From NCBI GenBank assembly GCA_001929475.1, contig LXFE01000152.1, positions 1-64,000 on the forward strand: a DNA stretch of 64,000 nucleotides. Direction: 5' to 3'. The stretch comes from Neolecta irregularis DAH-3. Its lineage: Eukaryota. This document shows, piece by piece, positions 20,500-64,000 of this stretch. Positions within the stretch are counted from its first letter, which is position 1, and the number at the start of each line of letters is the position of its first letter. The notes under the pieces were generated by a model that was given only the letters and a program-made list of their open reading frames with translations, had not been told where the DNA came from and did not search any database. A program made the position numbers and the translations under genes.

Positions 20500-21705
20500 T
20501 TAGTCGCCTGATCGATCGAGGTCGTGGAGCAGAGTCATGCGTTCCTTGTTCTTGCGCGCCTCTAATTCTAGACTCTCATGGAACCTAGGATCAACAAGGG
20601 GGGGGAGAACAAATAGATACATGTCGTTTAGTGCTGCTCGTAGGACCGAGTCTGGTAGTAAGAACAAGAGTTCTTTGACCTGGCTCATGAGGACTTGGTG
20701 GTCTGTGTCGGGGCCGGCTTTGGAAATATAGTGTTTCGTCATGGCGACAAGGGTTTCTAGGGAGGCGGCGAGGTCGCTGTTGCGGTGAAAGGCAAAATGG
20801 AAGAGATCCCATAGTTTGTGGGGGGTGTTTAGGGATTCTTTCCACATGAGGCGATCCGACTTGAGGCCTATGGATTTTGTGCCGGAGCCTGATTCTTTTG
20901 CCCAGGCGGAGACGATGCCTTCAAAGGTGGGTGGCTGGGGGTCAGACGAGTCAAAAAAGGAGAGTACGGCGTCGCCATCGAGGATTTCGATGAGTCTGCG
21001 GAAGCGGCTGGTGGACTCGATGTTGTCTCTCAGGTTTCCACGGGTCCACTTTGGTTCTGTGAGCTGGTTTTCCTTGTTTAGCCATATTTCTATTTTTTTC
21101 GCTAGGGCGAGCTGGCCGTTGGTAGGGTCTGTTGTGACGATGGCGAACTGCGGGTGGTACGAGTGGGAAATATCGTCGGTAAGCTGTTCAAAGGCGGCCC
21201 ACCCGTCGCAGTCGATCACGACATGGCCGCGGTCGCGGTGGAAGGCGATTCTGGAGATTCTGTCTGAGGGGATGATGATGCGGGCGCGGCCGCGGAAAAG
21301 CGAGATGCTGATGCGGTCCGGGTCGAGACCGGGCGCAGTCGGGCGGGAGTCTGCGTGACTGCGAAAGTATATGCGCAGGCGCGAATCGCGGTCGTCCTTG
21401 TTGGGCTGGTACTCATCCGAGTGGAAGGTGCCAATTGAGATTGCCTTGATGCGGAAATCGGAAAAGGTCTTTTTCCAGGGTTTGTGCTTGTGAGCTGGAG
21501 CATGAGGACCGCTCAACGGGCGCACGCTGGCTGCTGCTGATGGAGGGCGGGGACGCGGAGGATAGGGCCGTGGATATGCGCGCAGGGAGGCAGTGTGGGG
21601 ATCGTATTCGGGGTCGCGGCGAGGAGGGGCATTGTGGTGAGCAACGGGCAGGCCATAGGCGACTGGCGGCTGGGAGTAGTGCGGTGATCGCGGGTCCGCG
21701 TACAT
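20500..21705 (-). CDS. Hypothetical protein: Pro-rich N-terminus, beta-rich middle domain, helical C-terminus
   Basis: 401-aa ORF with gene-like composition. It probably includes two stop-free in-frame introns (33 nt near 20934-20966; 36 nt at 20585-20620). Confidence 0.75.
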   Translation of the reverse strand: MYADPRSPHYSQPPVAYGLPVAHHNAPPRRDPEYDPHTASLRAYPRPYPPRPRPPSAAASVRPLSGPHAPAHKHKPWKKTFSDFRIKAISIGTFHSDEYQPNKDDRDSRLRIYFRSHADSRPTAPGLDPDRISISLFRGRARIIIPSDRISRIAFHRDRGHVVIDCDGWAAFEQLTDDISHSYHPQFAIVTTDPTNGQLALAKKIEIWLNKENQLTEPKWTRGNLRDNIESTSRFRRLIEILDGDAVLSFFDSSDPQPPTFEGIVSAWAKESGSGTKSIGLKSDRLMWKESLNTPHKLWDLFHFAFHRNSDLAASLETLVAMTKHYISKAGPDTDHQVLMSQVKELLFLLPDSVLRAALNDMYLFVLPPLVDPRFHESLELEARKNKERMTLLHDLDRSGD

Positions 21706-21870
21706 GGTGGCGATGGGGTGGGAAAGCGGCGAGGTGATGGATTTGGTGGGAACGGCGGGTGGGGAGGGAATTCAGGAGGTGGATGGAGGTTGGCGGTGTG
21801 AGGTGAGGATGACCCGACGAACGGACTGCATAAATGTACTTTGGCAGCATACACTCAGTCTAGACCACAC

Positions 21871-23358
21871 TCATGCAGACCCACTGCTCTCTGCCGCTAT
21901 CCGGCATACTTCCTCTGCTTCCTCTTTTCTCTTAGTGACCTTGATGACCCCTTTGCGGACACTCGTGGCCTGCAGCACACCGGCCCACTTGTGCTTGTCG
22001 AACTTGTCGACGAGATCCTCCGCGATGCCGCGCAGGATCCAGTCGCTGCCGCGCAGAGACACCAGGAAACGCTCTCTGCATGCCTGCGGGGACCGCGGGC
22101 GGGGCAGCAGCTTGCAGATGCGCGACCAGCGGAAGCGGTGCAGCTCGCACAGCTGGAGCAGCTTGAGCAACTCGCTATATTCCCAGCGCAGCACATCGTG
22201 GTGGAGCGTCGTGATGTAGGTGTAGCGCGCCGCACACTGCCCGGGCGTGCGCGGGCCGACTCTGCGCGCGATCTCGACCCAGAACCCGGAGAGCATGGCG
22301 CCCTTGTTGCCGGTAAAGTCCGGCGTCAGCGCGGCCACCCCGCACACCAGCCGCTCCGTCTCGTCCTTAGACCATTGCCCCGACCGCGCGGTGGCGCGAT
22401 ACGACCGCGACCGCACGTAGCACTGCCGGAACGATTCCGCCCGGTCGAGGAACTCGGGCATTTCCGCCGCCACCATGGCCGTCCACCGCACAACACCCTG
22501 CGGGTTCGTATACGTGTTCTTTTCCAGCAGCGCGTCCACCTTTGCAAACACCGCTGCGCCGTAGTTCGTCCGCTGCGCCTGCGGCTTCAGGCGGCAGCCC
22601 GACCGCCAGAACGCGCGCAGCTGGGCGCACGTCCGCCTCGGGAAATGCACCTTTTGGATCACGCTCCACTGCTGGTCGTACTCCTCGATGGCCGTCTTCA
22701 GCACTTCCCGATCCTCCGCGCTCAGCGGCGAATGGTCCCACTGCGGGTGCAGAATCCTGCTCCACCGCGTCTTCACCCCGTCAGCACTGCGCCGCCCCAG
22801 CTGCTTCGCTATTTCCTTCCACTGCGCGGCCGTCGGCTTTCGAGAAGCATCCCCTTGCTGGATCCGCTCCACTTCTTCCTGGATCTTGGCATCCTCGTGC
22901 GGCCAGAACCGCCCGAAGCGCTGGCCCTCGGTCGCTTGCTCTACCGCTGGAACAATGGGTCCCTCGAGCACTGCATTCATCTCCTTCCATTTGGCTGTGC
23001 ATTCCTCCTTTGTCCGCCCATCTAGCCCCTCTGCTACCATTTCCAAGTCATCAAATACCAGCCCCCGTCGATATAAAATGACTTCTTCATCTTGCGTCCA
23101 CGGCTCTCGCTCCGTGCTACAATCATCCGCCCTTGGTGCTTCTGTCACTTTGCCCGCTCCACCAAGTCTCTGCCTAGTCTTCCTATGTAGGCTCGTTAAA
23201 TACTCTGATTTCCCCAGTTCATTCTTCTCCACGGCAGCACTCGAATATGTCCTCCTGCCAATACTCTTCAACCCATATACCCCAGGAAATACCCCCACCC
23301 TAGGCCGGAATTCTCGTAAAATTGCCCTATTGGTCAAGAGTCGACTGGTTCGGTTCAT
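21871..23358 (-). CDS. Intronless multi-Myb/SANT-repeat protein with putative mitochondrial presequence
   Basis: The 495-aa ORF contains repeats such as PWTQDEE..GRTKEECTAKW, WKEIAKQLGRRSADGVKTRW, WSVIQKVHFPRRTCAQLRAFW, GQWSKDE..WVEIARRVGPRTPGQCAARY and WSRICKLLPRPRSPQACRERF. The N-terminus is Arg-rich and nearly acid-free. Confidence 0.88.
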   Translation of the reverse strand: MNRTSRLLTNRAILREFRPRVGVFPGVYGLKSIGRRTYSSAAVEKNELGKSEYLTSLHRKTRQRLGGAGKVTEAPRADDCSTEREPWTQDEEVILYRRGLVFDDLEMVAEGLDGRTKEECTAKWKEMNAVLEGPIVPAVEQATEGQRFGRFWPHEDAKIQEEVERIQQGDASRKPTAAQWKEIAKQLGRRSADGVKTRWSRILHPQWDHSPLSAEDREVLKTAIEEYDQQWSVIQKVHFPRRTCAQLRAFWRSGCRLKPQAQRTNYGAAVFAKVDALLEKNTYTNPQGVVRWTAMVAAEMPEFLDRAESFRQCYVRSRSYRATARSGQWSKDETERLVCGVAALTPDFTGNKGAMLSGFWVEIARRVGPRTPGQCAARYTYITTLHHDVLRWEYSELLKLLQLCELHRFRWSRICKLLPRPRSPQACRERFLVSLRGSDWILRGIAEDLVDKFDKHKWAGVLQATSVRKGVIKVTKRKEEAEEVCRIAAESSGSA

Positions 23359-23465: not shown

Positions 23466-24262
23466 TTAAATAATGCTCAAACTCTTATCTATGATATCAA
23501 TCTTTTTACTCTTGGGACTGCGGAGTCGTTTTCTGAGACTTTGTTTCACATGACTACAAGTCTCTAGAAACCTAGTCTCCTCCTCTGATTCCTCGCTTGT
23601 AGATTCATCCATTTGTTCCTGTTCGTCACTTGCTCGCTCCCGTTCCTTTTCTCTTTCTCGTTCACGGATCAGTTGATCTTGAAGCAATATCCTCGGATCA
23701 ATAAACCGCATTTCTCCTCCAATTGCGTCCTCGCAACACTCCACAAATGACCTACACCCCACTTGAGACGGAGTAGCATGACTCAAGTCCACAATGATAT
23801 CTATCTTTATATCAATTTCTCCTCCCAGCCAAAATATACTTACTTTTGTGAATCGTAGTGTTGAACATGAAGGTTCCTTCCTCTGGATATCCTTTTCTCC
23901 CAAAATGATTAATACAGTATCTTAATAGCGTAACCCGGTCATATTTAGATACATTACGAAACTTTTGTCCAAACTGTCTTGTCAGATTCACACCAAGCAA
24001 AATGTATATACCCGGTAGCGCAGTTCTTCTTTTATCGCGGGACCTAGTTTGTCAAAATTTCGACATTGGCCTATTCCAACTTCATCGATAATCGTCGTCG
24101 TGCGTTTCTGAGTAAAATCAGCCGCTGTAAACATCGGTATTCTTGCAAAGAAGTCCTTGAAATCGGATCGTGTGCAGAACCCAGATCGGGTAAGAATCTC
24201 GCCAATTCTTTTTCCTTCTTTCTTGTTCTATGTGCTAGCTTGGATCTCACATAAAGGCACAT
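23466..24262 (-). CDS. Hypothetical multi-exon protein with charged (RE-rich) C-terminus
   Basis: Short ORFs can be joined by GT-AG micro-introns into ...IKEELRYRFGQKFRNVSKYDRVTLLRYCINHF...NIIVDLSHATPSQ...RERERE.... The 5' end is uncertain. Confidence 0.45.
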
Positions 24263-24740: not shown

Positions 24741-26229
24741 CTATGCTAGCATGCGCCCTTGTTTATAATTCCTATCCTCTCCATTCTCCGAAGGTTTTGA
24801 ATATCCGTGCTTGATGAGCCAGTCCCGAACAAAAATACTCGCTTTCATAAACTTCTTATTTGCATATTTCTTGAAGAATGCATCATGTCGGACAGGCTCA
24901 GAGCCCAAGTAATCCAACATTAAAGCTTCGACGGGTTTGATTTCAGACTCTTTATAACCAGAATAATGCACAAGATTGGCATCCTACAAACAATTAGATT
25001 GAATGCAACGAAAAGGTATACCCAATCTCCTCGATACAGTGTCCGTCGAGCGAGATACATGCCCGCAGCAGCAATCATGCTGGGGGGGTATTTCAAGAAT
25101 CGATGATCGAGACAACTGATTTCCATGAAATACTTAGCGACTGTCCGGGTTTGGATATCGTAGTTATCAGCCTTTGAATTCCGTCGCAAGAAATTCATTG
25201 GGTTGGGATATGATAGATTGAAGTCAAGTACACCTAAGACGTACCGTTCGGCCGTGAGGATCTCATCATCGGTGTAGCCATTATCCGCCATATAGACAAA
25301 CGACTGGATAGATGGAGCCAGGACCTCTTCGTACTTGGCAGCGATAAACATAGCAGTGATACCAACCAACTGGAGTTTTGCCAGGGAGACGACTCGAAGG
25401 GATAAAAAACGGTCAATGATGTTAATTGCGAGGAAAAGAGTTTCTGGCAATAACCGAAATTTGGCGTGGACTTCAATCAGCCAGTCGACCAGTATACCGC
25501 GCATAGACCATTGCAGGTCCTTCTGAGTAGCCATATAGTCAGGATTCGGTAGAGTCGAGATCTGAAGAAATTAACATACTTCTCAAAGGCTACAACCTCA
25601 AGTTCATTCATATAATCAAAAATCTCAACAACATACTCGCTGACCATCAGAGGGTCACTTGCATCCTCAGCATCGAGGTCATCCCAGTCCTTGGTATCCG
25701 AGACTTTGATTTTCTTTCGAGTGGGTTCATGTTTGCTACCAGGAGCCTCAACTTTGGTATTTGTCCGCTTCTTTTTTGCAGGCTCGGCGACGGATGCTTC
25801 CTCTTTCACTTTCGGAAGAGATGTACTGCTTGAGCGAGTGGTAATCCTTGGCTTGACAGCTGCTGCTGCTGCCTTGAGAACGGCCTTTGCGTTCTCCTTG
25901 TTGACATTGGATACATCTCCCAACGCCGCGCGTTTTCGCGTAATCCCTCCCGCAATTGTGCTTGACTGCTTTGATACGAGGCCGGAGCCACTCTTGGCCC
26001 TCGTGACTCGAGTAGTCATGTTTTCATCGTGATGGTTACTGGAGACAGTGGAACCTCGTGTTGCTCGACGCTAGGATGTGTTTTAGCGACGACACTCAAA
26101 AATAGGAGGAAAAAGGGGGCTACAGGAAACAGGAAATGGAGTGTATGCATCAATTCAGATAGCGAGAATCAGTGCCAAATAATCCATAAAGTTTTTTAGA
26201 ACAGAAAGTAAACATACCTGACCGTTCAT
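24741..26229 (-). CDS. cdc13: G2/M B-type cyclin (Cdc13/Clb2-like)
   Basis: Destruction box RAALGDVSN, DPLMVSEYV, cyclin box MRGILVDWLIEVHAKFRLLPETL, AKYEE and PNPMNFLRR. First exon MNGQ ends at a GTATGT donor. Confidence 0.95.
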
Positions 26230-38641: not shown

Positions 38642-41139
<2,498 letters not shown>

Positions 41140-58903: not shown

Positions 58904-61656
58904 TTATTCAGTATGATCATTATTGCAATCATTTAATGCAATCCCGTTGCCGTTTGAAACTAGATGAAATGCATTTGCCATGGGCCATCGTTGTCCCGCT
59001 TTTACTTTATACGATGAAACTTGAGGACTTGTCCATTTTTCAAGGATCGCGAGGCCGAGTTGAGCATCGTGTATTGTAGTCGAATCTAATTGAAGGATTT
59101 CAAATAGTATTTTTTCTGCGTTTGGCGAATTGATTACGGCGAGGGCTTCGGCGGCTGAGATGTCGTTAGTCACATAGAGCCTTTTTGCGTACTAGATAGT
59201 AAACCACGAGCACTCGACCGGCTCCTGTCTAATACTTGGTTTAAATATACATCAAGATCGACATCGGGGTCAATGAATGCTTTCAGTTGGGAGTTTAAAA
59301 GTTCTTTGACCGGGTCTGCAAGTTGGGCTTTTCGTACTAATAGTTCAGTAAAGAAATCAATTTCACAAAGTTCACTCTGTGTAAAGAATCGGGCGATTAG
59401 CGGGCATAGCCTAGGATCCGAGGAATCTATTGACGAAATACTTTGCAATGCTTTAGCTGATGCAATGTAATTACCTGGAAAAAGTCAGAAACATGAATTG
59501 TTCAATGTACGTTACCACTTCGAATATAAACTTCAAAAGCACTCAACCAAGTTTCAATCTCCTTCGAACACAACTGCACCAGTGGCTTCAAAAATGCATC
59601 GACGACTTTAAGCGGTTCCGTCGTCTTCGCCAATTTCTCACCAAAAGGATCATCATCGCCCGGCAACACATATACATCATTCTTTTTCGCTGCAAATGAT
59701 TTTTTAGCCTTTTTAATCGCTCGTTTCTTTTCCGATTCGTTTAGACGGATATTATCAATACCATGCGCAAATTCAGGGTTGTCGTACAACATACAATATA
59801 TTTTCACGGCAGAATGCGCAGCCTTGACAAAATTAGGATTCGAACGAAGTTGATCTTCCCATTTTAACATATCAATATATGTTCTAATGGTCCCTTTTCG
59901 TACTGCATATGCGTGAAAATCGAATTGATCATCGGCCCATTCATCAAATATTTTTAAAATCGTGTGGAAGCGTTTTAATGCGAGACCCAATTTTCCTTGG
60001 CGGAGGTATGATTGTCCATCTTCAAGGATAAACCAGAAAGCCTGCATTTCTGATAAATCGCCTACTGAGCCTCCTGGTGCATCTTTCTCGGTATGTTAAT
60101 TACTTTAGAGAGATAGAAGGGTACCCTGGTGAAAGGTTTGGCAATTTCTGCGGCAAGAGTATTTTGATTGTCACGTAGATAATATTTTACACATTTCGTA
60201 TTGACGAAACGATCTCGAAGATCTGATTCTCGCGCTTCGTTCATGGTTTTAGCGGCGCCAGGGATATCGCCGACATGCTTTAGTATTCGAGCTTTAAACA
60301 TTCTCAATTCGACTGTTTCTGGGGACAACTGAATGGTAGTCTCGATATATTCCTGTGCCTTGTCAAAGTTGGCGATGTAATCGTGGTGCTGTGCAAGGTA
60401 ATAATGCGCCCATAAAAGAGAATTATCCAAGGTGTCGAGGGAAGCGATGTACTCATTCACGACTTGGAAAGCAATCTCACGTTTAGATTTGTCTTGATAT
60501 AGAGATTTGATATTGGCGAATATGGATGGAATCCCCTTCTGAAAAGCGGCGATCAAGTAAGGTTTTAGCAAATCTCGGAATTCGTCGCCTGAATAAGAAG
60601 AGAAAAAGAAGGGGCGATACCATTGAGGTGGTCTAGAAACCTTCGCTTTGCAGCATCAGACTTTGGATAACGTTGTTGCAAGTCGTGGTATAATGTTTTT
60701 AGAGCAGCTTTGTTTACAAGGACGTTGTTGTCGTCGATTGCCTGTCGAACCTGTTCAAGGGCAACAAAGTATTCAATTTTATCACTATTCCTGTCCATGA
60801 GGACAAAATATGCCTTTTCTGCTTGTTGCCAATTTTTTAGGAGCAAAAGGTATTTTGCGTGCAATTCTGCGACGGTGAGTTTGTCGAGGACGTTTAATTC
60901 GATGGATTGCAGATGGGAGAGGGCGCGTTCGATGTCTCCGGACTGGTAGATGACCATGTTGTGATAGAGGAGAGCCTCTGAATTTTCCAAGTCCCATGGA
61001 TTGACGCGCTAGAGAGTGGGTTTTGAAAAAAGAAAACAAGGAAGGGTACCTTCAAGGTAGCCTGGTACGAGGCGAGGGTTGATTCTGCAGCGGAGTAGTC
61101 GTTTGAGAGGTGTTGGGCGAGGGCGAGGGCTGACCAGTTTTGGCGTTGCTCTGGTCTTAACTGAATGATTTTTGAGCGAGATTCTGCGTAGTGGGCAAAC
61201 ATTCTGAGCTGGACCTGGAGCATTGCGAAGTCGCGGAGGATCTGGTGATTATCCCTGTCGAACTTGAGGGCGTTTGCATAGCACTTGAGAGCTTCGTCGT
61301 AGTTTTTGTCTGCTCGTTGGACGATGCCGTAGACGTGCCAGCAAATGTGACTTGTGAGATCGCACTTGAGGCCTCTGCGAATAAGATCGTAGCCTTCCTG
61401 CTTGCGGTCGGTGTTTGTGTAGAGGAGTCCTTTCATGGCAAGGGTGTCTGGGATTAGAAGGGACAATGTGAAAAGAGCGAGTACCGGGATGGTCTGGGAA
61501 TCGTTTGAGGATCAGGTCTGCTGTCTTGATGCCTTTCTTGTACTGCTTCGTCTCATAGAGACGCTGGTGGTTAGTGCAGCAGCGGAGGACAAGTACAAGC
61601 AGGGCCTTGAACAGGGCGAGTTCCTTTGGTGCCAGTGCTGGCTTTGCGGGAGGCAT
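58904..61656 (-). CDS. NAT1: NatA N-terminal acetyltransferase auxiliary subunit Nat1/Naa15
   Basis: YETKQYKKGIKTAD, SHICWHVYG, QILRDFAMLQVQLR, DLRDRFVNTKCVKY, DDQFDFHAY and DDDPFGEKL. Confidence 0.96.
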
Positions 61657-61869
61657 GGGTGGTGGTGATGATACCAATGTGAGTACTGATACCAGGTTCC
61701 GTCTGCACTGATACTATCCAGGATTGGTATTCTCTACTTCAGTACGCTTCCGTATTCCCAGTACTGCTCGCTGTAGTCCGCCGCTACTCTTGATTGTTGT
61801 CCACCCGACTCTTGGTTGTTGTCCACAACTCCACTGATACCACCGCACTTTACACACTCTACTCATATT

Positions 61870-62960
61870 ATGGTGCATCCACGCCTGTCGCTGCTGACTC
61901 CCAGGCTGCTGCTGCTGCTGCTGCTAATACCACCGGGACTGTCGCCCAGACACTCGACACCCACCATGACGACATGATTGCACGTTCTCCTGCGGACCCC
62001 GCTGACTCCAGCACGATGCCGTTCTTGACTACTACGGCAAGCGCCTCGCGACCTGCTCCTCAGACAAGACCATCAAGATTTTTTCCGTCGATGGGGCGAC
62101 CCACAGACTCGTCGAGACGCTGCGAGGGTGCTTCTTGCGCCTTTTTTGACCGGCACACTAACTTTATCCAGCCACGACGGCCCCGTATGGCAGCTCGCAT
62201 GGGCGCACCCCAAGTTTGGCACCATCCTCGCAAGCTCCAGCTACGACGGCCGTGTCCTCATCTGGCGCGAAAACAGTCCAAACAACTGGTCCCGCCTCAT
62301 CGAACACACGCTCCACCAGGCAAGCGGTATTTCTCACCGTATCTCTCCGCTAACCCCAAAGTCAATTCAGTCGCCTGGGCCCCGCATGAACTCGGCGCCA
62401 TTCTCGCCTGCGCCTCCTCGGACGGCAAGGTGTCTGTCCTCGAATTCAAAGATGACGGCACCTGGGACACTAGGACTTTTCCCGCCCACGCAATTGGCTG
62501 CAATGCCGCGACTTGGGCTCCCAGCACTCTCCCTGCCTCCCTCATCACCGCAGGCTCCTCGCACTCTCCCGCCGTCAAGCGCATCGCTACCGCCGGATGC
62601 GACAATCTCATCAAAATATGGTCATACAGCTCAGAATCAAACAATTGGATAGAAGAAACGGTCCTCGACGCGCATACAGACTGGGTCAGAGACCTCGCTT
62701 GGGCTCCAAATATCGGCCTCCCAAAATCATATCTTGCATCCGCCAGCCAAGACAAAACAGTCCTCATCTGGACCCAGAGCGGCAACGCACCCTGGGAGAA
62801 ACGCTCATTGCGAGCAGAAAAGTTTCCAGACGTCGTATGGAGAGTCAGCTGGAGCCTCTCCGGAAACGTCCTCGCCGTTAGCTGTGGAGATAACAAGGTC
62901 ACCCTATGGAAGGAAAATCTTAAGGGCGAGTGGGATTGCGTGAGTGAGATTGATAGTTGA
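61870..62960 (+). CDS. SEC13: COPII/nucleoporin WD40 protein Sec13 (5 exons)
   Basis: [58 protein letters not shown] and [16 protein letters not shown]. The first exon is ATG only. Confidence 0.97.
61905..61925 (+). repeat. (GCT)7 trinucleotide repeat encoding poly-Ala at the Sec13 N-terminus
   Basis: Seven GCT units directly after the first intron acceptor. Confidence 0.85.
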
Positions 62961-63239
62961 TTTATGCTCTAACCCGTCATCGTTCTCCTTTTAATCGTCA
63001 TCTTATCCTCTTAACCGTCACTTCAACTTCCATCTTCGTAACACCAATTTATCCTCTTTCACCGTCATTTCATCCTATTTTCACTTCAACTTACCTCTTA
63101 CTCGTCATCTTATCCACTTTTACGTCAACTCATCCTCTTTCAAACTTTCTTTCACCTCAAACTGGCCTCCTTCCTGCATCCCGTCTTTGTATTCGGGCAC
63201 TGGTCCCATGTCATTCTCAGCAATAAAGCCTGGTACAAG

Positions 63240-64000
63240 ATGGTGATGCAGGCCATCTCCAATCTATTGCCTATAGCCATATGGATGGCCATATACATCA
63301 ACGCTCCAGCCATACCGGCCCACTGGAGACCCCAAATCAACGTCGCCATCATGGACCGCTGGGACCAATCGACATTTGACTACAAGCCAGGCATCATTAT
63401 ACTCGTACTCTCTCTATTTGCATTAGGGTATATGCTCACCTATGAAAATCCAAAACTAACCATGAGATATATTTTCTCCTTTTCTTTCTCAAAAAGTTTA
63501 TTCATCTCTATAATCCCCGTTATCCTAAACATACAATTCTCTTTTTCCCACAAAATCTACCCATTTCTCGACATCCTCGCTTTTCTCCCATATACAATAA
63601 TCCATGTTACTTCTCCGTTTCTAGCCTCGTCTTGGCTCTGGTTATTCGCTCCTGCCGGCAAGAATGCACCCTTTGTCCGTATTATAATGTGTAGGTACAG
63701 TAGGGTCGTTTGTCTGGGCGTTTGGTTGCCAAAGCATAGCAGGACTATTCACCCATCTCGTATTTCCAAATGCAGCTCCATGTAAAATCTACGTTTGAAA
63801 CGCAGAGGAGTTCAATTTTAGGGTACGAGGATGTATATAAACGACCGGCTCCAGTTGCTACTTACTCTATGCCTGGCAATCCTGCTGGTTTACAACGAAT
63901 CGATTTAATCTTGGGAACACAGTTTTGTGGGATCAAGTTCAATGGGTCGCCGGTAGTTTTTGGTGCCTTTCCTTCTTTACATTCTGCTTTCGCTTGTCTC
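63240..64000 (+). CDS. Inositol-phosphoryl transferase, IPT1/AUR1 (PAP2) family; 3' end beyond the window
   Basis: LDILAFLPYTIIHVTSPF, AGLFTHLVFPNAAPWY, PGNPAGLQRID and SPVVFGAFPSLHSAFA. Confidence 0.88.

Follow-up and report, generated by a model that had tools for sequence, protein, structure and literature searches.

A Myb-repeat protein of Neolecta irregularis with a presequence-like N-terminus belongs to an undescribed fungal family related to SNAPC4

The window, a stretch of 64,000 nucleotides from contig LXFE01000152.1 of Neolecta irregularis DAH-3, contains a gene whose product, P0001, consists of an array of Myb repeats behind an N-terminus that resembles a mitochondrial presequence. 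To our knowledge, all characterised Myb arrays are nuclear. The known mitochondrial DNA- and RNA-binding families are the HMG-box, mTERF and PPR proteins and the phage-type polymerase with its methyltransferase-like factor. The locus thus raises the question of what P0001 is related to, and whether it works in the nucleus or in mitochondria.

P0001 is encoded by a single open frame that starts with ATG (Table 1). An in-frame TGA is found six codons 5' of this ATG, and the next methionine is residue 106, within the conserved first repeat R1. Since no methionine occurs until residue 106, M1 is the sole possible start, barring an upstream exon. The preliminary description had considered a start downstream of the putative presequence; before residue 106, which already lies inside R1, there is no alternative methionine for it. 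The two relatives from Saitoella and P0001 also start alike (MRQ.LSL.. versus MNRTSRLL). The continuous frame and its unbroken alignment with the relatives indicate that the gene is intronless, confirming the intronless frame of 495 residues first described among intron-rich neighbours. As an indirect check of the neighbours, the cyclin and Cef1 frames of the window begin within their own Pfam domains.

A GC peak of up to 70%, versus about 42%, spans the P0001 gene and its downstream neighbour, which is likewise intronless. The GC3 of the P0001 gene is 0.74; the other measured frames, with one exception, have values of 0.34-0.52. Two intronless genes in such a peak might be taken for a foreign or decaying GC-rich insert, in which case the frame would be no working gene of the organism. 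However, all 495 codons are open, and core residues are kept in all six repeats, with 26 invariant columns in the five-sequence alignment that are mostly the core Trp and the Cys/Arg positions of each repeat. In addition, the nearest relatives come from the lineage suggested by the other genes of the window, and the GC profile is bell-shaped and ignores gene borders, unlike an insertion. An insert is therefore very improbable. Horizontal transfer as the source of the GC peak was rejected on the same shape of the profile.

Table 1. Position of the P0001 coding sequence and of its segments in the window
Feature	Position	Strand	Basis
Complete intronless CDS, 495 codons + stop (P0001)	21871..23358	-	ORF; colinear relatives
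Residues 1-42, presequence-like N-terminus: 8 R, 1 K, 1 acidic	23233..23358	-	Composition, low-confidence helix 2-16
Residues 35-40, RRTY/SS, R-3 type motif R-x-[FYL]-[SA]	23239..23256	-	Motif match
Residues 43-83, disordered linker absent from relatives	23110..23232	-	Alignment, model
R1, residues 84-131, acidic SANT-like (net -5)	22966..23109	-	Signature W..E..IL.RR......(W)..V.EGL.G.....C
R2, residues 148-203, Myb repeat, long helix 1-helix 2 insert	22750..22917	-	Aligns with helix-1 + SNAPC4 Rh
R3, residues 208-255, Myb repeat, first Trp replaced by Leu	22594..22737	-	Aligns with SNAPC4 Ra
R4, residues 265-325, degenerate Myb repeat, long basic third helix	22384..22566	-	Aligns with SNAPC4 Rb
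R5, residues 326-385, Myb repeat with insert	22204..22383	-	Aligns with SNAPC4 Rc
R6, residues 389-436, most basic repeat (net +7); best Pfam stretch 391-432	22051..22194	-	Aligns with SNAPC4 Rd
Tail, residues 437-495, two helices, possible partial seventh repeat	21874..22050	-	Alignment, model

The Pfam family Myb_DNA-binding (PF00249) matched P0001 with an E value of 6.4e-28, with four stretches passing alone, and Myb_DNA-bind_6 matched with an E value of 1.7e-26. The AlphaFold2 model, built from the five-sequence alignment and of modest quality (mean pLDDT 61.7, pTM 0.26), revealed six three-helix bundles, R1 to R6, at residues 89-131, 153-203, 214-255, 268-325, 331-385 and 394-436. Two tail helices follow at residues 440-453 and 459-491, with W441 and W459 at Myb-like spacing. 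The model thus recovers the at least six Myb/SANT-like repeats and the partial seventh that had been read from the sequence. Residues 1-83 are disordered save for a helix at residues 2-16 predicted at a pLDDT of about 35. In the model the bundles are separate from each other and adopt no fixed mutual arrangement, and P0001 resembles beads on a string rather than the solenoid of PPR proteins or of mTERF, the known mitochondrial terminator family. No PPR or mTERF Pfam family was found in P0001 at E<=1. A search of the ESM Atlas returned generic Myb clusters only, all under 0.8. Besides the charges of R1 and R6, the net charges are +4 for R2, neutral for R3, +3 for R4 and +2 for R5, and the protein from residue 39 onward has a pI of 9.2.

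To find relatives, a HMMER search with P0001 was performed over 1.84 billion cluster representatives. It found 316 proteins at E<=0.001, of which 20 reached E<=1e-10; at E<=1e-30 the query was alone. Among the best 150 of the 316 matches, which were examined, only two proteins from Saitoella and two from Pneumocystis matched full-length P0001 in a single stretch; the rest matched piecemeal. All of these are hypothetical proteins. Those of Saitoella have 491 and 423 residues, the Pneumocystis canis protein has 374 residues, and the P. murina gene model is truncated at 299 residues. These relatives share 23-27% identity with P0001.

Further matches are proteins of 600-730 residues with about ten repeats, labelled hypothetical or 'Homeodomain-like'. 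This ten-repeat family was found in the Mucorales (Mucor, Rhizopus, Cunninghamella, Circinella, Phascolomyces, Spinellus, Rhizomucor and Apophysomyces), in Calcarisporiella and Bifiguratus, and in the Glomeromycota (Paraglomus and Ambispora); examples are KAI9259584.1 of Phascolomyces, EPB89871.1 of Mucor circinelloides and KAG2219491.1 of Circinella. Comparison of the group of P0001 (the window group) with seven ten-repeat proteins of Mucoromycota by hhalign yielded a probability of 100 and an E value of 2.2e-40 over 325 columns. Residues 82-445 of P0001 pair with residues 205-650 of the ten-repeat protein P0153, colinearly and with R1 included. The two groups are alike in their colinearity from R1 to the C-terminus, in an acid-poor extension directly before the first repeat, and in the signature of R1, W..E..ILLRR..LYG..W..VAEGL.GRT...C, which makes R1 the most recognisable mark of the family. 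The ten-repeat proteins differ in having three additional N-terminal repeats and, between R1 and R2, a further repeat together with a helical insert, and P0001 is the equivalent of their C-terminal two thirds. Several of them match the SNAPC4-domain profile twice, once per half, and the family therefore resembles a tandem duplication of a module. Judging by these profile matches, the ten-repeat family looks like two SNAPC4-type modules in tandem; by the alignment, P0001 keeps a single repeat of the first module.

The relation to SNAPC4 was examined with a canonical SNAPC4-like set of nine proteins with the canonical layout, assembled from the HMMER matches. The window group matched this set by hhalign with a probability of 99.8 and an E value of 3.5e-28 over 262 columns (residues 147-433 of P0001). 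R2 to R6 align in order with helix-1/Rh, Ra, Rb, Rc and Rd, the four and a half repeats of the SNAPC4 Myb domain, and the domain ends at the same position after the last repeat. The ten-repeat family matched the canonical set with an E value of 3.3e-43, and the best PDB match of its profile is human SNAPC4 (E 1.7e-41). In a Foldseek search of the PDB with the P0001 model, SNAPC4 again came first (7xur_A, E 6.6e-5). The low TM score reflects the lack of a fixed arrangement among the repeats. Since R2-R6 are colinear with the whole Myb domain of SNAPC4, we conclude that P0001 is a SNAPC4 homologue.

The best PDB sequence match of the window-group profile is c-Myb (1h88_C, E 1e-28), which shares the three-helix repeat with P0001. 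However, this match is confined to profile positions 96-207 (R2-R3), so the similarity to c-Myb and the R2R3 Myb proteins is generic, and P0001 has no transactivation domain. Reb1 gave a weak match (5eyb, profile E 3.5e-11; Foldseek E 8e-4) that is partial and non-colinear, pairing profile positions 256-344 with chain residues 206-292 of 5eyb. No colinear match in P0001 was found for the two Myb-associated domains plus two Myb repeats of Reb1, TTF-I and Rtf1.

Thiedig et al. reportedly treated the evolution of plant SNAPc4 in 2021, with a survey of SNAPC4 across eukaryotes that may extend to fungi. According to a passage in PMC8854648, which cites that study, the 4R-MYB SNAPc4 is conserved across a broad range of eukaryotes. 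In the passages of PMC9652321 on human SNAPc, Rb, Rc and Rd lie in the major groove of the promoter element, whereas Rh and Ra serve the assembly with the other subunits; the base-specific contacts are described there as few, so that partners are required. The charges in P0001 fit this division of labour, as R4-R6, which correspond to the DNA-docking Rb-Rd, are basic. On the other hand, P0001 differs from SNAPC4/SNAP190, a nuclear snRNA promoter factor and the largest subunit of the snRNA-activating protein complex, by the lack of the long C-terminus and of the region N-terminal to the Myb domain that the canonical set shares and that binds subunits in human SNAP190, and by the presence of the extra acidic R1 and the presequence-like N-terminus.

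The homology raises the possibility that P0001 is a nuclear DNA-binding factor, either the working SNAPC4 of its lineage or a different factor acting at nuclear promoters or terminators, whose basic N-terminus is no targeting signal. The colinearity of R2-R6 with a complete SNAPC4 Myb domain, the identical end point, and the first rank of SNAPC4 both in the Foldseek search and for the sister family all favour this reading. In addition, no canonical SNAPC4 of Taphrinomycotina was present among those matches listed that were named, and P0001 could serve as the nuclear factor if the genome has no canonical SNAPC4. However, several results set P0001 apart from canonical SNAPC4. The hhalign match stops short of the canonical N-terminal region upstream of the Myb domain, for which no counterpart was found in residues 1-146 of P0001. 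In Spinellus fusiger, a canonical SNAPC4-like protein, P0068, and a member of the ten-repeat family, P0080, are both present; P0068 has the N-terminal region shared by the canonical set, and its score on the SNAPC4-domain profile is 357 bits. On the SNAPC4 Myb-domain profile the canonical proteins score 308-365 bits, although these scores are inflated because every one of these proteins except P0189 (308 bits) had been used to train the profile, versus 98 bits for P0001 and at most 160 bits per module for the ten-repeat proteins. HMMER found three SNAPC4 segments, each of which matches the same last two repeats of the ten-repeat family, and these matches are not colinear.

A maximum likelihood tree (LG+G4, quick search, no mixture model) of 29 domain segments points in the same direction. 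All five rows of the window group fall into a single clade (SH-aLRT 98), which is united with the 12 rows of the C-terminal module of the ten-repeat proteins (support 90), whereas the 10 canonical SNAPC4 rows are on the opposite side (91), where the N-terminal module of these proteins is also placed. P0001 is on a long branch (1.6), and its placement deserves a fuller analysis. The presence of both kinds of protein in Spinellus fusiger and the separation in the tree led us to reject the view that the family is simply fungal SNAPC4. Taken as a comparison of sequences, the evidence makes P0001 a SNAPC4 paralogue, not an orthologue, and a role as the nuclear factor rather unlikely. The preliminary description had named orthology to nuclear SNAPC4 as a result that would count against a mitochondrial protein; the homology is real, whereas the orthology is opposed by the tree and by the coexistence in Spinellus fusiger.

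The N-terminus was then examined. The first 42 residues of P0001 are rich in Arg, Ser and Leu, with E16 as the sole acidic residue, and the RRTY|SS motif lies where an R-3 type cleavage site had been noted, so that this part of the preliminary description was borne out. The sequence RTYS from residue 36 fits R-x-[FYL]-[SA]; Arg at -2/-3 and R-x-[FYL]-[SA] form the consensus for MPP/Icp55 processing. Matrix presequences are positively charged, poor in acidic residues and able to form an amphipathic helix; the composition of the P0001 N-terminus agrees with this, and its maximal hydrophobic moment is 0.71 over 11 residues but 0.41 over 18. The mitochondrial ribosomal L2-type frame of the window has an N-terminus of similar composition. 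However, E16 counts against a presequence, as does the 40-residue acidic/basic linker, which no relative shares.

We compared the N-termini of 16 family members with complete N-termini with those of 11 canonical SNAPC4-like proteins and 113 other rows. Eight further rows of the family, with gene models that start at a repeat or within one, were set aside. The 16 members include two weak rows (P0077, which matches the family profile only partly, and P0026, a partial protein close to P0019). In 15/16 family members the first 30 residues contain no more than one acidic residue, versus 1/11 canonical proteins (Fisher p 1.4e-5). The value for the other rows is 23/113 (p 1.3e-8), or 22/112 without the window neighbour P0002, which is not a Myb match; the measure is crude, as Myb proteins are generally basic and these 22 of 112 unrelated Myb matches pass too. 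Some of the other rows with presequence-like starts may be unrecognised family members. The motif R-x-[FYL]-[SA] was present in the first 60 residues of 7/16 family members, 0/11 canonical proteins and 13/113 other rows. In 13 of the 16 members, the entire stretch of 28-65 residues before the domain has 0-1 acidic residues and contains 2-8 Arg and many Ser/Thr and hydrophobic residues, frequently starting with ML or MF. The start of the Paraglomus protein, one of the rows set aside, is also acid-poor. The Pneumocystis canis model, another of these rows, has just 14 residues before R1, which are basic and too few for a typical presequence. The presequence-like character of the N-terminus is shared across the family of P0001, which supports the preliminary description on this point.

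The N-terminal extensions cannot be aligned among family members, whereas the repeats that follow can. A composition kept without the sequence, directly before the first folded domain, is the pattern of a cleavable targeting peptide. In fungi, a cleavable targeting peptide of such kind means mitochondria. These acid-poor N-termini across the family are difficult to explain for a nuclear factor. Therefore, a mitochondrial import signal appears to be the best-supported reading of the P0001 N-terminus, with a probability that we place at even or somewhat better. That P0001 as a whole is a mitochondrially imported member of a fungal Myb-array family derived from the SNAPC4 Myb domain has, on the present comparisons, about an even chance.

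The same N-termini, acid-poor in 15 of 16 members, would also fit a P0001 that is imported into mitochondria but works on RNA or in nucleoid packaging rather than in sequence-specific control of transcription. RNA is the target of most known organellar repeat proteins. According to the title of the matched PDB entry 6jui, the Myb domain of Cdc5/Cef1 binds nucleic acids through two distinct surfaces. However, the basic repeats of P0001 are those most like the DNA-docking Rb-Rd of SNAPC4, and nothing in the sequence points to RNA, making this function distinctly unlikely.

The family, found so far in Taphrinomycotina, Mucoromycota and Glomeromycota, is undescribed in the literature searched, and no description of a mitochondrial Myb protein was found there, most subscription journals being outside its reach. 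To this extent the preliminary description, which knew of no such family, was right; yet P0001 is not without kin, as it is related to the Saitoella and Pneumocystis proteins, to the ten-repeat family and to SNAPC4.

Based on the import reading and on the comparison with SNAPc, we propose a working model of P0001. The N-terminal extension would be a matrix-targeting presequence, which would be cut near RRTY|SS at about residue 38. The mature basic protein would bind a long site on mtDNA via the basic repeats R4-R6, which are the likely DNA-docking part because they are the positional counterparts of Rb-Rd. The acidic R1 together with R2-R3 would probably hold a partner; for R2-R3 this role is suggested since they are the counterparts of Rh-Ra, which take part in the assembly of the SNAPc subunits. 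Once bound, P0001 would recruit or arrest the mitochondrial transcription machinery. By this analogy, its most likely role would be that of a sequence-specific factor that labels promoters or terminators in mitochondria for recognition by the transcription machinery there. Reb1, TTF-I and Rtf1, as well as mTERF, offer a possible functional analogy, in which several helical DNA-binding modules occupy a long site and stop or direct polymerases. We tentatively suggest, at somewhat less than even chances, that the SNAPC4 Myb domain was duplicated early in fungi, gained a presequence and was redeployed in mitochondria as a sequence-specific DNA-binding factor.

If this is true, the family would be of a new kind, the first organellar nucleic-acid-binding family built of Myb repeats, and a nuclear basal promoter factor would have been copied for organellar use. 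The family is absent from the matches listed for the yeasts in which mitochondrial gene expression has mostly been studied, whereas Mucoromycota, Glomeromycota and early-branching Taphrinomycotina have kept it. Pneumocystis is among the latter, and retention in its reduced, gene-poor genome suggests an important function. The family would then open a way to study the control of mitochondrial transcription, a subject on which knowledge is scarce for Mucorales, arbuscular mycorrhizal fungi and Pneumocystis. Were P0001 nuclear after all, it would still be a second, undescribed SNAPC4-type factor of fungi.

Among the Mucoromycota relatives of P0001, the six-repeat Myb protein of Neolecta irregularis, the N-terminal half of P0050, P0023, P0054, P0080 and P0016 matched the full profile of the SNAPC4 Myb domain, and in some of these proteins the C-terminal half did likewise. 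In P0050, the profile scored 133 bits at residues 49-298 and 123 bits at residues 378-596. These matches make the ten-repeat proteins look as if a SNAPC4-type module had been duplicated in tandem. In the maximum-likelihood tree, the N-terminal module of the Mucoromycota family lies nearer to canonical SNAPC4.

The GC profile of the window revealed a bell-shaped peak at 20700-23100, with a maximum of 70% at about 22.2-22.5 kb versus approximately 42% over most of the window. The peak covers the Myb gene together with its downstream neighbour, and the profile does not track the gene borders. Within the Myb gene, GC3 rises from 0.5 at the 5' end to 0.9 in the middle of the gene, compared to 0.34-0.43 in most other ORFs of the window. 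The peak seems to reflect a local bias in mutation or gene conversion, and not an insertion. Lesser increases in GC were also observed at 1-2000 and 60000-64000.

The neighbouring ORFs are listed in the table. The ORF encoding P0002 lies 165 bp downstream of the Myb gene on the same strand. No Pfam family was found for P0002 at E<=1, and the PDB search returned no match. A weak Atlas feature match to TRF2/HOY1 PH-like domain clusters, with a score of 0.83 that is under the meaningful level, is the sole lead on this protein. On the other side, the upstream ORF stops just 108 bp ahead of the ATG of the Myb gene, leaving scant promoter space for the latter; this ORF is possibly the final exon of the cyclin gene found at 24920-25534.

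Features of the window around and beyond the Myb gene
Feature	Position	Strand	Remarks
P0002 ORF, 401 aa	20500-21705	-	intronless, Pro-rich N-terminus
Upstream ORF	23466-23903	-	acidic Glu/Arg-rich stretch; same strand as Myb gene
Mitochondrial-type ribosomal protein L2	33243-34247	+	extension of ~114 residues
Cef1/Cdc5, C-terminal part	39412-40788	+	Myb_Cef, E 1.5e-53

Cef1/Cdc5 is the canonical nuclear Myb protein. The extension of the L2-type ORF is acid-poor at its beginning.

Long Myb arrays were also found in two further related proteins, P0014 and P0003. In P0014 (654 aa), about ten copies of a Myb-like unit of roughly 58 residues, nearly identical to one another, follow an acid-free, Arg/Ser/Leu-rich N-terminus; its database label is that of an 'archaeon' MAG, and the protein is eukaryote-like. 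P0003 (2487 aa) harbors 32 Myb stretches. Myb arrays with organelle-type N-termini may also occur outside fungi.
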